DNA of 64,000 nt from Minisyncoccota bacterium (GTDB lineage Bacteria > Patescibacteriota > Minisyncoccia > Phycocordibacterales > DAORIS01), in NCBI GenBank assembly GCA_035438625.1, contig DAORIS010000001.1:56104-120103 (forward strand). The letters are read 5' to 3'. Position numbers and translations under genes: made by a program. Each line of letters begins with the position of its first letter. Positions within the stretch are counted from its first letter, which is position 1. The notes beneath the pieces were generated by a model. The model did not search any database. It was not told the DNA's origin and saw only the letters and a program-made list of their open reading frames with translations. Of this stretch, positions 57,034 through 62,465 are shown piece by piece.

Positions 57034-58044
57034 TTATCGCTTCGCTACAATTGCACGCTTATATACATCCAAATGTTCAAGTGCAATACCGGTTCCCTTT
57101 GCTACACAAAAATATGCTTCATCAGCAAGTAGTGCTTTAACACCTGTCCTTCGAAAAACCAGTTCGGGAAGATTTCTAAGTTGTGATGTACCACCAGTCA
57201 TAATAATTCCCTGGTCAATAATGTCTGAGGCAAGTTCAGGAGGAGTCTCTTGAAGTACTGACTTAATCGCATTGATCATTTCTCGAAGTTCTCGGGAAAT
57301 TGCTTTCACTACTTCGTTTGTTCGCATTTCAATAGAACGCGGAAGACCTGAGACAAAATCTCTTCCCTTTACAATCATTGTCAATTCTTCTTCAACAGGA
57401 ACGGCTGATCCAACTTGAATTTTGATATCCTCTGCCGTCTTTTCCCCAATCGAAAGGTTAAACGTCTTTTTTACATAATCAATTATTGCCGCATCAATTT
57501 TGTTTCCAGCAACTTTCACAGAAGTGGATGCCACAATTCCTCCAAGTGAAATCACCGCCACATCAGTTGTTCCACCTCCAGCGTCAACAACCATTCGTCC
57601 CATTGGTTCGTGAATTGGAATACCAGCACCAATTGCCGCAAGAATAGGTTCTTTAACAACATACGCATTCTTTGCACCAGCTTTAACCGCAGCTTCGATA
57701 ACCGCACGTCGCTCGGTTGATGTCACTCCAGCAGGAACTGAGATGAGTACGTCAGGGCGAATAATATTAAAACGGCCGAGTGCCTTATGAATGTAATATC
57801 GAAGCATCGCTTCGGTTACACGATAGTCCGCAATCACCCCATCTTTCATTGGACGATACGCAATGATTTCATCCGGTGTTCGTCCGATCATAAACTTGGC
57901 TTCAGATCCTACCGCGAGGATTCTATTGTTAGACGAGACCGCAACAACTGAAGGCTCATTTAGTACCACTCCCTTTCCGGGCACAAACACCAGCGTGTTT
58001 GCTGTACCTAGGTCAATTCCAAGCTTTTTAGTAAAAAATCCCAT
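57034..58044 (-). CDS. Second MreB/Mbl-like actin homolog
   Basis: LGIDLGTANTLVFVPGKGVVLNEPSVVA and DAGGGTTDVAVISLGGIV. Stand-alone, not next to mreCD. Confidence 0.85.
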   Translation of the reverse strand: MGFFTKKLGIDLGTANTLVFVPGKGVVLNEPSVVAVSSNNRILAVGSEAKFMIGRTPDEIIAYRPMKDGVIADYRVTEAMLRYYIHKALGRFNIIRPDVLISVPAGVTSTERRAVIEAAVKAGAKNAYVVKEPILAAIGAGIPIHEPMGRMVVDAGGGTTDVAVISLGGIVASTSVKVAGNKIDAAIIDYVKKTFNLSIGEKTAEDIKIQVGSAVPVEEELTMIVKGRDFVSGLPRSIEMRTNEVVKAISRELREMINAIKSVLQETPPELASDIIDQGIIMTGGTSQLRNLPELVFRRTGVKALLADEAYFCVAKGTGIALEHLDVYKRAIVAKR

Positions 58045-58132: not shown

Positions 58133-58462
58133 TTAAACCGCAAGGTGAGCGTCACTCTCAAGGAGTTTGCTATGAACCCGGTCAATGATCATGCCGACCG
58201 TGAATGAATCGCGAAAACTCCAATCATGAGCACGTCTCAGTTCTTCATCTGAAAGGAGTTGAAAATGAAATGTTCTTTCAACCAAATACCGAAGTTGGAG
58301 AAACCACACCCCGTCATCATAAGAAAGGGGTGGGTCTTTCAACTTGAGCTCAGAGCGCAGTGTAAGTGGATCCCCATCGTAATACACCGCTTGAGCAATG
58401 AGGCTTTTTACCAGAGCAGTGGTCGCTTCGACACTAATAGATTTTGCCGATGTGCCAGACAC
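58133..58462 (-). CDS. Hypothetical protein
   Basis: ORF only. Confidence 0.3.
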   Translation of the reverse strand: MSGTSAKSISVEATTALVKSLIAQAVYYDGDPLTLRSELKLKDPPLSYDDGVWFLQLRYLVERTFHFQLLSDEELRRAHDWSFRDSFTVGMIIDRVHSKLLESDAHLAV

Positions 58463-58578: not shown

Positions 58579-59019
58579 CTACTTCAACATCTGAGTGATG
58601 CCGTGAAGTTCTTTATCAATTCGATTGACAATCTCCTCAACAGTGATCACTGAGCGAGCGTGCCCACTCTGATCGAGGTTGTTAAGTTCGGTGTCATCAA
58701 AAATCGTGACATGAAACTCATTTTCAACCCTTTGGTTGAGCAGCCTGTAAAAGAACCGGTCGACGATGCCAATTGGATCGTCTTGCAAAGCCGTTTCAGT
58801 GGGCACCTGTTCTGGTCGACCTTCAAATAAGGTCGATTCAGCAACAATCACCTTCACCGATCTTCGAATTGCTTCTTTCGTATGCCATGGTTTCAGCATG
58901 ATTCCTCCATGTGGTTTGAAATTACTAAAATGTACTGTGCTACAGAGTAACACTGATTCAAGGAACATTATACCATAATTTATTGCAGAAATCAACGATT
59001 TTATATTTTTCCACACCAC
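58579..59019 (-). CDS. Hypothetical protein (probably starts at an internal Met)
   Basis: ORF only. Confidence 0.3.
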   Translation of the reverse strand: MVWKNIKSLISAINYGIMFLESVLLCSTVHFSNFKPHGGIMLKPWHTKEAIRRSVKVIVAESTLFEGRPEQVPTETALQDDPIGIVDRFFYRLLNQRVENEFHVTIFDDTELNNLDQSGHARSVITVEEIVNRIDKELHGITQMLK

Positions 59020-59070
59020 GAACCACTCTCAAGGTGACAAGTTACTATATATCATATATGCTATATAGAT

Positions 59071-60582
59071 ATGAATTCATACACAAAAGAGATAGGGGTA
59101 ATGATCGGTCGATTCAGGGAACACGCGGGCCTAACACAGGGTAAATTGGCAGAAATGGTAGGCACAACACAAAGCGCTATTGCTCGTATTGAAAAGGGTG
59201 ACCAGAACCTTTCTGCTGAGATGATCATGAAAATCAGCGATGCACTCGAACAAGACCTTATTCGAGTTTCTGATGGATCTCTCAATATTAAAGTTGAAGG
59301 TGGACGAAAGCTCTCAGGAGCAATTGATACAAAGACTTCAAAAAACGGTGCCATGGGACTCCTTGCCGCTTCCCTCCTTAACCACGGAAAAACAACACTC
59401 AAAAACGTACCAAAGATTGAAGAAGTAAAGAGAATGATTGAAGTATTCGCTTCAATGGGTATCAGTATTGAATGGAAAGGACCGGATCTCGAAATCCAAG
59501 TACCAAAGAAAATAGATTTTAAAAATATTGATGTTGCAGCGGCTGAGCGCACTCGAAGCATCATCATGCTTATTGGCCCCCTCATTCACCACGCAAAGAA
59601 ATTCAGTCTTCCACAAGCTGGTGGTTGCAAACTTGGATCACGAACCGTTCGACCACACCTCTTTGCACTTGAGAAATTTGGAGTACATGTTGAATCAAAA
59701 GAGCGCTCATACGATATTTCAGCACCAAAACTTCAACCTGCTGAAATTGTTCTCTATGAATCAGGTGACACAGTAACTGAAAACGCAATCATTGCAGCTG
59801 CAGGAATTCCAGGAAAAACTATCATCAAATATGCCTCAGCGAACTACATGGGACAAGAGGTATGTTTCTTCCTCGAAAAACTCGGTGTAAAAATTGATGG
59901 AATCGGGACAACAACAATCACCGTCCACGGCGTTAAAGATATTGACATGGACGTAACATACTATCTTTCCGAAGATCCGATTGAGTCAATGTTTTTCCTT
60001 GCTGCAGCAATTGTCACCAAGTCTTCCCTCCTCATCCGTCGCTGCCCAATTGAATTCCTCGAAGTAGAATTGATCAAATTAGAGAAGATGGGTTTTAAAT
60101 ATGAAATTGTAAAAGAATATCAATCACACAACGGCCGAACAAAACTTGTTGATATTCAGACTCACCCATCAAAACTCGTTGCCCTTGAAGAAAAGATCGA
60201 GTGCCGACCTTACCCAGGACTTAACATCGACAACTTACCTTTCTTTGCAATCATTGCTACTCAAGCCGAAGGAATGACGTTGATTCACGACTGGGTATAT
60301 GAGAAGCGTGCAATTCACACAAAAGATATTGATAAGCTTGGTGCTGAGACCGTCTTGATTGACCCACATCGATTACAAATCATTGGACCGACACCACTTA
60401 AGGCAGCTGAGGTTATCTGCCCTCCAGCACTCCGCCCAGCAGCAATTCTCCTGATTGGAATGCTTGCAGCAAATGGAACATCAGTACTACGCAATATATA
60501 CAGTATTAACCGAGGATATGAGGACCTTGTTTCACGATTGAACTCAATTGGTGCAAACGTGAAAATTCTTCGAGAATCATAG
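59071..60582 (+). CDS. murA: Fusion protein: N-terminal XRE-type HTH domain plus UDP-N-acetylglucosamine 1-carboxyvinyltransferase MurA
   Basis: HTH IGRFREHAGLTQGKLAEMVGTTQSAIARIEKGDQNLSAEMIMKISDAL (residues ~10-60). MurA then begins LNIKVEGGRKLSGAIDTKTSKNGAMGLLAASLL...LKNVPKIEEV (compare E. coli [32 protein letters not shown]...IQNVPKLKDV). Catalytic Cys loop PQAGGCKLGSRTVRPH. C-terminal YSINRGYEDLVSRLNSIGANV matches [21 protein letters not shown]. The alternative start at 59101 (MIGRF, SD GAGATAGGGG) still includes the HTH. Confidence 0.75.
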   Translation: MNSYTKEIGVMIGRFREHAGLTQGKLAEMVGTTQSAIARIEKGDQNLSAEMIMKISDALEQDLIRVSDGSLNIKVEGGRKLSGAIDTKTSKNGAMGLLAASLLNHGKTTLKNVPKIEEVKRMIEVFASMGISIEWKGPDLEIQVPKKIDFKNIDVAAAERTRSIIMLIGPLIHHAKKFSLPQAGGCKLGSRTVRPHLFALEKFGVHVESKERSYDISAPKLQPAEIVLYESGDTVTENAIIAAAGIPGKTIIKYASANYMGQEVCFFLEKLGVKIDGIGTTTITVHGVKDIDMDVTYYLSEDPIESMFFLAAAIVTKSSLLIRRCPIEFLEVELIKLEKMGFKYEIVKEYQSHNGRTKLVDIQTHPSKLVALEEKIECRPYPGLNIDNLPFFAIIATQAEGMTLIHDWVYEKRAIHTKDIDKLGAETVLIDPHRLQIIGPTPLKAAEVICPPALRPAAILLIGMLAANGTSVLRNIYSINRGYEDLVSRLNSIGANVKILRES

Positions 60583-60593
60583 ATAATAGGGGC

Positions 60594-62465
60594 GTGTACA
60601 CACTAACCGTATCTCCGCTTGAGATAGGACTCCGAGAACCGCTTACGTACTTTTCATCGAGCGGTTTTTCGCGTGGAGCATTGGTACCCATCAGAATTCG
60701 CAACAAACCTCTCCTTGGTGTTGTAATTGATAGCTCACCTATTCGAAACAGAACTGACATTAAGAACATGCCATTCACCTTAAAAAGACTAGGAAATGGC
60801 GAGGGTGTAATTGGAACACAGAAAGTTGATCCTGCCCTTTTGGAATCTACTTCAATACTTGCTGATGCACACCTTACACTTTCAGGCTCTGTAATTAAGG
60901 CACTCTATCCTGAAATGCCAATTGATCTATTGGAGCAATTGATAACCGCACCAAAACATAAAGCGATTGTAAAGAATCAGCAGGCACGATCTTTTGCATT
61001 ATCAATAGACGGACAGAGAAATAAGATTTTAGAAATAACAAAGGAAGTAACATCCTCAGGAAAAAGTATTGCGATAATTACACCCACACGAGACATAGGT
61101 AAGCACATTGAACAACTCCTTGAAGGCACTGCGCCTACATGTCGACTTGAAGGAACTCTCACAACTGCAAAACAAAAAAAGCTCCGTGAAATTGTCCGCT
61201 CACCAGTTATTCCAATTACAATCACCACCCCACAGTACGCTGCAATCGCTTCAACACGAGCAGACGAGATACTTGCTGTTAATGTTTCTGAGGCAGGTTG
61301 GACGATGGTCAAAGAACCAAGAGTTTCTTTTCTGCAGTGGCTTTCACTGTATACAGAAAAAGCGGGTAAACCAATTACACACCTTGGTAGCACCATTCCT
61401 CTTACAATCGCTACAGGAAGCACGGTAACCATTGACCGAACCCCACTTAAAAAAAGAGTTCGTGGTGTCCTTCAAAAGTTATATGCCGATACAAAGCTAT
61501 CTGAAGAAGTCACGCAAACACTACAGGATGGAAAAAATGTCTTTGTACTTTCATTTAGAAAAGCTCTCTACGGGATTGTTCGCTGTGGGGACTGTGGAGT
61601 TTCTGTTCCCTGCGTGAATTGTGGACTTCCTGTAACCCTTATTCGAAAAGTAGAACCTCGCCCACCTGAAGAATTAGTTGGATTAGCTGGAAGCACCCAA
61701 GCAAAAGATCCGCGCGCATACCATTGCCACCACTGCCAAAGTGAACAACCACTACGAGACCTCTGTGCTAACTGCGGAAGCTGGAGACTGCGCCTCATCA
61801 AGCCAGGCACCGAGTCAGTTTCTGAAGATGTTAAAAAAGCATTTCCTGATGCGAAAGTTATTACGATTGATAAAGATATTGCTTCGACCCCAAAGCGAGC
61901 AGAAGAACTTCTAAAAAAATCCTCGGGTGGAACTATTATTGTCGGAACCATATATGCACTTCCATATCTTAAGAATATTGGGTGCACTGTTATTCCCCAC
62001 CCTGAAAATATGCTTTCAATCCCTCAGTATCACATTCTTGAATCTGCTCGAACACTTATGGAAAAAATTGCCGACATAACTTCCGGCACCATATATATAG
62101 AAGCGCATGAACGTAATGATCAAATCTTGGACCTTCTAATAAAACCAACACTCGAGGAATTTATTGACTCAGAACAAAAACTTCGAGAACAACTTCACTA
62201 TCCCCCATATGGTTCAATCATTACCATCACCACATCTGGAAACCCAACAAAAGTACGTGAGTCACTTGAGACCCTACAACAAGCGTTTATTGCACATGAT
62301 CCAGTTTCATTGCCACTTGTAGTAATGGGTACAAAAGCTAAGGGTGGAGTACGAATTCATATCCAGAAAGGAACATCAGAAAGTGAGTACGGAAGCCTCA
62401 TTTCCTCTATTATTAGCCTCCATCCATCATTTAGACTTACTGTAGACCCATATGGGCTGGAATAG
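60594..62465 (+). CDS. priA: Primosomal protein N' (PriA)-like with degenerate helicase motifs
   Basis: N-terminal 3'-binding-domain-like start YTLTVSPLEIGLREPLTYFSS...GALVPIRIRNKPLLGVVID. Cys-rich insertion VRCGDCGVSVPCVNCGLPVTL...YHCHHCQSEQPLRDLCANCGS...KPGTE (two C4 clusters, as in PriA). REQLHYPPYGS and the ...VDPYGLE end are PriA-like. Walker A position reads VTSSGKS and the DEEH position reads VSEAG. Sits in the conserved priA-def-fmt arrangement. Confidence 0.6.
   Translation: MYTLTVSPLEIGLREPLTYFSSSGFSRGALVPIRIRNKPLLGVVIDSSPIRNRTDIKNMPFTLKRLGNGEGVIGTQKVDPALLESTSILADAHLTLSGSVIKALYPEMPIDLLEQLITAPKHKAIVKNQQARSFALSIDGQRNKILEITKEVTSSGKSIAIITPTRDIGKHIEQLLEGTAPTCRLEGTLTTAKQKKLREIVRSPVIPITITTPQYAAIASTRADEILAVNVSEAGWTMVKEPRVSFLQWLSLYTEKAGKPITHLGSTIPLTIATGSTVTIDRTPLKKRVRGVLQKLYADTKLSEEVTQTLQDGKNVFVLSFRKALYGIVRCGDCGVSVPCVNCGLPVTLIRKVEPRPPEELVGLAGSTQAKDPRAYHCHHCQSEQPLRDLCANCGSWRLRLIKPGTESVSEDVKKAFPDAKVITIDKDIASTPKRAEELLKKSSGGTIIVGTIYALPYLKNIGCTVIPHPENMLSIPQYHILESARTLMEKIADITSGTIYIEAHERNDQILDLLIKPTLEEFIDSEQKLREQLHYPPYGSIITITTSGNPTKVRESLETLQQAFIAHDPVSLPLVVMGTKAKGGVRIHIQKGTSESEYGSLISSIISLHPSFRLTVDPYGLE

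Follow-up and report, generated by a model that had tools for sequence, protein, structure and literature searches.

Within a 64,000-nucleotide (nt) stretch of a Minisyncoccota genome (contig DAORIS010000001.1, positions 56,104 to 120,103; the whole stretch is called the window here) the gene murA encodes the enzyme MurA joined to an N-terminal helix-turn-helix (HTH) domain of the XRE family. The product, HTH-MurA, probably binds an operator lying over the -10 region of its own promoter and represses murA, and would be a bifunctional enzyme-repressor acting by negative autoregulation; the probability of this reading is put at roughly 0.75. DNA binding, dimerisation, the repressive sign and ligand control are properties of HTH-MurA that we infer from comparative evidence. 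MurA, which catalyses the first committed step of peptidoglycan synthesis, is the fosfomycin target, and in studied bacteria its level is set by post-translational control or by separate regulators. A self-repressing MurA, if real, would be a minimal one-protein homeostat of cell-wall precursor supply.

In the proposed mechanism the HTH, presumably as a dimer, would bind an 18-bp palindrome made of the half-sites TATAGCATA and TATGCTATA, the right half of which would also be the extended -10 of the murA promoter. An occupied operator would block RNA polymerase, and as HTH-MurA accumulates transcription of murA would drop, giving negative feedback on the committed step. Repression is preferred as the direction of the effect because the operator overlaps the -10. 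The gene, its parts and its upstream elements lie at these positions of the window:

59071..60582, + strand: coding sequence of HTH-MurA, 503 amino acids (aa) from the first ATG, 493 aa from the ATG at 59101
59048..59065, no strand assigned: predicted 18-bp dyad-symmetric operator, TATATCATA followed by TATGCTATA, together TATATCATATATGCTATA, agreeing at 17 of 18 positions with the family consensus TATAGCATATATGCTATA
59057..59067, + strand: murA -10 region within the right half of the operator, either TATGCT (59057-59062) or the extended TGcTATATA (59059-59067)
59034..59039, + strand: -35-like GTGACA found by a consensus scan, 17 nt upstream of TATGCT
59110..59250, + strand: XRE/Cro-C1-type HTH domain, residues 14-60 (Pfam HTH_3)
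59164..59193, + strand: recognition-helix segment TTQSAIARIE, residues 32-41
59251..59280, + strand: linker EQDLIRVSDG, residues 61-70
59281..60579, + strand: MurA (UDP-GlcNAc 1-carboxyvinyltransferase) domain, residues 71-503, aligning end to end with solved MurAs
59620..59643, + strand: catalytic Cys loop GGCKLGSR with Cys186 and Arg191, residues 184-191

The evidence for the operator comes from 67 murA loci taken from one-genome-per-species GTDB contigs, a sample biased towards the close relatives of the query. When the upstream regions of all loci are aligned, the perfect palindrome is found before nearly every fused murA, and its right half is the extended -10 of that gene (TGCTATAAT). 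The copy in the window is the sole match with up to three mismatches in 64 kb, where 0.02 would be expected by chance. Within 200 nt upstream of murA, the best match in every one of the 34 fused loci has 0-3 mismatches; in every one of the 22 unfused loci it has 5-8, equal to the background distribution. Close relatives that have no HTH on MurA carry the right (promoter) half only. Neighbour-joining on the MurA domain puts unfused groups inside fused ones at three or more points of the tree; HTH and left half-site therefore came and went together repeatedly. The lineages that lost both are natural 'knock-outs', and the operator is predicted with single-base precision.

The information content of the aligned sites is 1.0-2.0 bits at all 18 operator positions as against 0.1-0.5 bits in the flanks, and several changes within the operator are symmetric, G5:C14 being replaced by T5:A14 in five loci and T1:A18 by C1:G18 in two. 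Conservation runs on rightwards into the last T of TATAAT and does not do so leftwards. This asymmetry bears on a simpler account, in which the HTH does not bind here at all and the palindrome consists of two back-to-back extended -10 elements (TGCTATA on each strand), one for murA and one for the divergent gene. The right half is indeed the murA -10; in unfused loci a separate TGCTATATT belonging to the divergent neighbour mreB is found 20-25 nt off on the other strand; and in 4 of the 22 fused loci examined, but only in those, the left half can be read as an extended -10 on the minus strand (TGnTAnnnT). Against such a pair, the left flank lacks the conserved final T of a hexamer, and the left half is therefore not a second -10. 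Moreover, mreB often has a separate extended -10 situated 7-12 nt from its own ATG, and the small divergent open reading frame (ORF) of the window has one as well (TGGTATAAT, 58975-58967). The compact palindrome occurs only with HTH genes, and its symmetric changes co-vary with the recognition helix, which independent promoters would not do. A generic promoter or bidirectional -10 pair was accordingly found weak on its rarity in the window, the left-flank information and the separate divergent -10s, and back-to-back promoters are considered very unlikely.

The co-variation concerns the residue that precedes the recognition-helix Gln, which is Thr or Ser and tracks operator base pair 5/14 (G:C or T:A). 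With a 'TT-QS' helix, G5/C14 is found exactly in 18/24 loci and T5 plus A14 in none, and with a 'TS-QS' helix T or C at position 5 plus A at position 14 is found in 6/6. The six TS-QS loci include two (L052 and L013) that are nested in TT clades, and the degenerate HTH-MurA-like proteins described below, also of the TS-QS type, likewise have a T5/A14 operator. This single residue is predicted to set the base-pair specificity of the domain. The original prediction, a reading of the letters of the window alone, had offered autoregulation as one of two possible roles of the fusion, and this idea gains from the dyad operator over the -10, from its co-occurrence with the HTH and from the co-variation with the helix, all of which point to an autoregulatory function.

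Additional information can be drawn from the protein itself. The frame from 59071 to 60582 is unbroken, and a Pfam search, in which six families were matched, places HTH_3 (PF01381) on residues 14-60 (E 6.8e-13; 48.9 bits, cutoff 23), with HTH_31 also above its cutoff (36.1 versus 27), and EPSP_synthase (PF00275) on residues 75-489 (E 3e-45; profile positions 1-416 of 417). HTH_3 and EPSP_synthase are the two families in which the original prediction had proposed to look, and the motifs that it quoted (GGCKLGSR at 184-191, INRGYE at 479-484, TTQSAIARIE at 32-41) are at the places it gave. The MurA subfamily NF006873 of NCBIfam is matched above its cutoff (316.6 bits, cutoff 297), the stricter TIGR01072 equivalog below its own. 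An XRE HTH and a complete MurA in a single polypeptide are thereby confirmed by Pfam and NCBIfam and, as set out below, by a survey of homologues.

In the AlphaFold2 model the HTH helices span residues 2-8, 13-20, 24-31 and 39-49 (numbered from Met 11; predicted local distance difference test, pLDDT, 64-90). The Q, S, R and E of the recognition helix are invariant in 47 fused proteins. The linker is the least conserved segment (47% mean identity) and the one modelled with lowest confidence (pLDDT <50 at model residues 55-58). Among solved structures, PDB sequence matches place the HTH closest to C.BclI, C.AhdI, HipB, HigA and the 434 repressor, all of them dimeric repressors of palindromic operators.

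The enzyme part aligns over its full length with the solved MurA 5ujs (E 8e-49) at a sequence identity to solved MurAs of about 26%. The model of the whole protein has a pLDDT of 87 and is matched by Foldseek to solved MurAs with E-values of 1e-38 to 1e-33 and target-normalised template-modelling (TM) scores of 0.83-0.91. Five motifs correspond to those of 5ujs and 3r38, namely SKNG (90-93), GGCKLGSR (184-191), NIDN (385-388), LRPAA (454-458) and INRGYE (479-484), and within them K91-N92, C186/R191, D387, R455 and R481 align to the active-site motifs of the solved structures. The MurA catalytic residues are, in E. coli numbering, Lys22/Asn23, the Cys115 loop with Arg120, Asp305, Arg371 and Arg397. 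On these alignments the MurA part looks catalytically competent.

The fusion is widely conserved. An identical protein is present in NCBI from a Candidatus Paceibacterota metagenome-assembled genome (MAG), and among the best 120 matches in a collection of 5.8 billion proteins PF01381 and PF00275 occur together in 120/120 (67-79% identity, 500-557 aa), many of them encoded on contigs of 100 kb to 1 Mb. Searching with a divergent query gave 119 more fused proteins, from Colwell-, Taylor- and Liptonbacteria among others, and the survey of orthologues that the original prediction had suggested thus returns the same architecture in both sets. HTH-MurA is accordingly spread over a large part of the Paceibacteria, being encoded in hundreds of MAGs and in no fewer than 34 GTDB species loci. 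In the 47 fused proteins the HTH segment has a mean identity of 65% versus 74% for the enzyme part. In the closest pairs the ratio of nonsynonymous to synonymous changes per site (pN/pS) over the HTH codons is 0.03-0.08, synonymous sites being saturated overall; the HTH is therefore translated and under selection.

These data also address a gene-model artefact, in which translation would start at Met 51 (59221) or the HTH would have been joined to murA by an assembly or frameshift error. In-frame Met codons do exist at 59155 (inside the HTH), 59221 and 59227, and the original prediction had pointed to one of them as the only HTH-less start, which lies at 59221 (MIMKIS) and not at 59224 as it stated. 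The two ATGs that it named as candidates without preferring either, 59071 and 59101, are present, both include the HTH, and the second is preceded by 'gagatagggg' as described. Against the artefact, over 230 independent assemblies show the same continuous ORF, the promoter precedes the HTH, and the low pN/pS of the HTH codons conflicts with an HTH-less start. No stand-alone HTH gene was found by tblastn in the 67 murA loci (490 kb), and a separate upstream HTH gene in orthologues, which would have spoken for misassembly, was thus not encountered. An assembly error or a separate HTH gene was ruled out on the continuous ORF of every close fused homologue together with the tblastn result; the fusion is evidently not an assembly error or artefact, and an artefact of any of these kinds is exceedingly improbable.

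The genomic position of the gene is equally constant. The order mreB (minus strand), murA (plus strand), a priA-like gene and def is common to fused and unfused loci, and the fused gene therefore fills the housekeeping murA slot. The divergent neighbour, given for context only, is

57034..58044, - strand: mreB, divergent neighbour of murA (Pfam MreB_Mbl, E 2e-131)

This conserved divergent synteny could be taken to favour a structural role, with the HTH as a protein-protein module that tethers MurA to MreB filaments in the manner of RodZ, whose cytoplasmic XRE-like HTH is established to bind MreB (RodZ context: PMC9804626). The synteny is, however, identical in unfused genomes, and such a tether would leave the co-varying operator unexplained. 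RodZ was not among the PDB sequence matches of the HTH, and HTH_25 was not among the six Pfam families matched. The RodZ-type layout, HTH_25 followed by a transmembrane segment, is also not found, MurA following the HTH directly. The nearest solved relatives, as noted above, are DNA-binding repressors. An MreB tether was rejected as the principal explanation on the Pfam, synteny and solved-relative evidence and is highly improbable; nucleoid or envelope tethering, the other role that the original prediction had offered, finds no support either, given that these relatives are operator-binding repressors.

The origin of the HTH and its operator is suggested by occurrences of the palindrome elsewhere. 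A scan of metagenome contigs for the exact 18-mer gave at least 120 loci (L068-L187). Among the matches listed, HTH-MurA adjoins the palindrome in about nine of the 120, and an XRE ORF matching the MurA-HTH profile lies within 700 nt of it in 77/120, most of these ORFs carrying the helix G-T-[TK]-Q-S-x-I-x-R-x-E; as a base rate, the 490 kb of murA loci gave no HTH matches beyond those on MurA. The closest stand-alone relatives of the HTH among the matches listed (66-78 bits to the MurA-HTH profile) are second genes of two-gene operons whose first gene encodes a Gp49/RelE-like toxin (PF05973, E 4e-22), and the antitoxin HTH has an NCBIfam match profile mirroring the one obtained for the MurA HTH. 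In several operons the palindrome stands 8-10 nt before the Gp49 toxin start, with the HTH antitoxin behind; in another class it abuts the antitoxin start, behind the Gp49 gene. Many murA loci share that geometry, the ATG following the operator by 8-12 nt.

Because the same palindrome and recognition helix are found in Gp49/XRE operons, murA appears to have acquired its HTH together with the operator from a Gp49(RelE/HigB-like)/XRE toxin-antitoxin module. An antitoxin would here have been domesticated, promoter-operator cassette included, for the control of a core housekeeping gene. Compared with Gp49-paired XRE/HigA antitoxins, HTH-MurA is alike in its HTH subfamily, in the helix GTTQSxxARxE, in the 18-bp palindrome and in an operator that overlaps the -10 and precedes the first start codon by 8-12 nt. 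It differs in lacking their 30-40-residue N-terminal extension and in a C-terminus that is a 430-residue enzyme, the regulated gene being murA and not a toxin-antitoxin operon. HTH-MurA is not itself an antitoxin, because no toxin partner was found in the window by tblastn for Gp49.

Such an origin leaves room for a different account, namely that the HTH on MurA is a passenger of a captured antitoxin promoter cassette and that the operator is bound mainly by free antitoxins from elsewhere in the genome, with toxin-antitoxin modules controlling murA. The 18-mer and recognition helix common to Gp49/XRE operons fit this, as does the mirrored NCBIfam profile. A passenger would not, however, be expected to remain under the strong purifying selection seen in the MurA HTH, to have a specificity residue that follows the murA operator variant or to be lost together with the left half-site. 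Within the 64-kb window, moreover, no Gp49 gene, second HTH of the MurA-HTH type, second operator or second murA was found. The passenger account is therefore regarded as unlikely, and autoregulation by HTH-MurA itself as preferable.

Further occurrences of the exact palindrome can be described alongside. Example modules with exact TATAGCATATATGCTATA are L139 8554-9177, L121 8365-9023 and L114 3025-3678. The palindrome is also present at other small XRE genes, with at least five XRE subfamilies represented (helices GTKQSVISRLE, GTTQSVVARME, GISLSQIARIE, GTKQANISRLE and MGTTQSAISRI), and is an unusually widely shared operator. A search of representative proteins carried out exhaustively with the HTH alone returned multi-HTH repeat proteins and truncated HTH-MurA fragments as top matches, along with two of the degenerate proteins discussed below (P0173 and P0228).

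Several points weigh against autoregulation by HTH-MurA. XRE operators need a dimer; the AlphaFold2 monomer has only the four HTH helices, with no fifth before the low-confidence linker, and to our knowledge there is no evidence for dimerisation of MurA. The tree is a crude neighbour-joining one and the fused loci are related, so fewer independent events stand behind the co-occurrence than its counts suggest. The use of one 18-mer by diverged XRE subfamilies is unusual for operator specificity, and free antitoxins may also bind the murA operator (cross-talk). Lastly, HTH-MurA scores 310.8 against the TIGR01072 murA equivalog model, below its cutoff of 392.7.

Enzymes that carry a DNA-binding domain of their own are known as 'trigger enzymes' and include BirA (biotin protein ligase and bio-operon repressor), NadR and PutA. 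HTH-MurA, likened to them from sequence alone, would share the union of enzyme and DNA-binding domain in one polypeptide and an operator that overlaps the promoter of one or more genes of the enzyme's own pathway, permitting direct feedback without a separate regulator. The DNA-binding domain is of the XRE/Cro-C1 type in HTH-MurA, whereas it is a winged HTH in BirA and a ribbon-helix-helix in PutA, and unlike all three systems the enzyme belongs to peptidoglycan synthesis, with self-regulation only indicated, by one operator in 64 kb. BirA is switched by a ligand, biotinoyl-AMP; for HTH-MurA such a switch is hypothetical. BzdR-type regulators (PRK08154, an XRE HTH with a shikimate-kinase-like sensor, and among the weak NCBIfam matches of the HTH part) are similar in that an XRE HTH is fused to an enzyme fold. 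They differ in that HTH-MurA occupies the housekeeping murA slot with every catalytic motif retained, for which reasons it is not merely a sensor. Canonical MurA (E. coli, E. cloacae; PDB 1uae, 3su9) shares the fold, the Cys loop and the Lys-Asn, Asp and Arg motifs, and lacks the additional 70-residue N-terminal DNA-binding module of HTH-MurA, which falls under the TIGR01072 cutoff. The original prediction did not recognise the fusion as a described architecture, and this is consistent with the literature, in which no paper describing MurA fused to an HTH or XRE domain, or any enzyme-borne DNA-binding domain on MurA, was found, including in Patescibacteria, Parcubacteria and trigger-enzyme contexts. 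Public databases hold HTH-MurA proteins under the plain label MurA.

The family also has a rare side branch whose members are catalytically degenerate. The Cys loop and RGYE are kept in about 228 of the 237 HTH-MurA proteins collected, and the Cys loop and two arginines are lost in seven or eight of them (P0173, P0228, P0242, P0271-P0274). Two of the degenerate proteins (P0228 and P0274) could be placed on contigs (L188 3481-5003 and L189 5975-7518). In L188 the degenerate gene has the T5/A14 operator variant at its ATG and adjoins Mur ligase genes and the gene of a canonical, unfused MurA. The L189 copy is oriented divergently from the gene string murD-like / Mur ligase / Mur ligase / MurA / MurB, and the operator variant lies within the 72-nt intergenic region. 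These proteins have the look of dedicated regulators whose sensor domain derives from MurA, and they fit the BzdR type, in which an enzyme fold has come to serve as a sensor. Their regulator-like layout lends indirect support to a regulatory role across the family.

Two extensions of the autoregulatory reading are put forward jointly and tentatively, as possible rather than probable. In the first, HTH-MurA would be a flux-sensing trigger enzyme in which the open or closed state of MurA, set by UDP-N-acetylglucosamine (UDP-GlcNAc), phosphoenolpyruvate (PEP) or the downstream product UDP-N-acetylmuramic acid (UDP-MurNAc), gates dimerisation or DNA binding of the antitoxin-derived HTH. In the second, the side-branch fused copy would be a dedicated MurA-fold ligand-sensing repressor of the murA-murB-Mur-ligase operon (L188, L189). 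Ligand gating of HTH-MurA is plausible because solved MurAs trap UDP-MurNAc together with the PEP-Cys adduct (3su9, 3swd, 8d84), and the existence of the catalytically dead side branch is a second hint, indirect like the first. If flux sensing is real, pathway flux would directly tune murA transcription in regulator-poor organisms.

Promoter and start codon can be considered together. Conservation across loci extends to the TG at operator positions 12-13 as well as to the last T of TATAAT. The -35-like GTGACA is not conserved in related loci (left-flank information 0.0-0.6 bits) and is therefore optional or weak. If TATGCT is the -10, the transcript would start at about 59069-71 and the ATG at 59071 would be leaderless; if it is the family-conserved TGnTATATA (59059-67), transcription would start near 59074 and the ATG at 59101 would be the start. 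The first ATG lies 5 nt after the operator and the second 35 nt after it, like a leadered class of loci (L002-L004, 31-36 nt), and the promoter geometry is compatible with both, the HTH being kept by either. A start codon 8-12 nt after the operator or -10 is found for the murA of L005-L009, L035, L037, L051 and L052 and for the Gp49 gene of L114, L121 and L158, a spacing that suggests leaderless or near-leaderless mRNAs for these Paceibacteria genes.

Downstream of murA, the priA-like ORF (60594-62465, + strand, 623 aa) has no Pfam match; TIGR00595 matches its C-terminal half only (E 2e-30, under cutoff), and PriA models are all below their cutoffs. It is very divergent, its syntenic counterparts sharing just 20-32% identity, and its stop codon and the start of def (62452) overlap. 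A tRNA-Glu was the only match when the window was scanned with Rfam and for tRNAs.

A few loci of the survey stand apart. Two contigs labelled 'Candidatus Nanoarchaeia archaeon' (L021) and 'Gammaproteobacteria' (L059) carry MurA and neighbours that are 63-74% identical to, and syntenic with, those of Paceibacteria, and these contigs are probably mis-binned or mislabelled; many other records bear the generic label 'Candidatus Saccharibacteria'. In a Moranbacteria locus (L053 4001-5383) the murA match begins at query residue 46 and the extended frame closes after 74 codons, which may reflect a frameshift, a pseudogene or an assembly error.

Between mreB and murA lie two small paralogous ORFs on the minus strand, 58133-58462 (109 aa) and 58579-58899 (about 106 aa), the second being listed as 58579-59019 if counted from a GTG. 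They are 29% identical to each other (E 1e-11) and occur in 0/56 related loci; no Pfam or NCBIfam family was matched, the only similarity, to acyl carrier protein, being non-significant. A terminator-like hairpin lies behind each ORF (58112-58092 and 58564-58544), and the second ORF has, besides its own extended -10 given above, a GGAGG Shine-Dalgarno sequence before the ATG at 58899.

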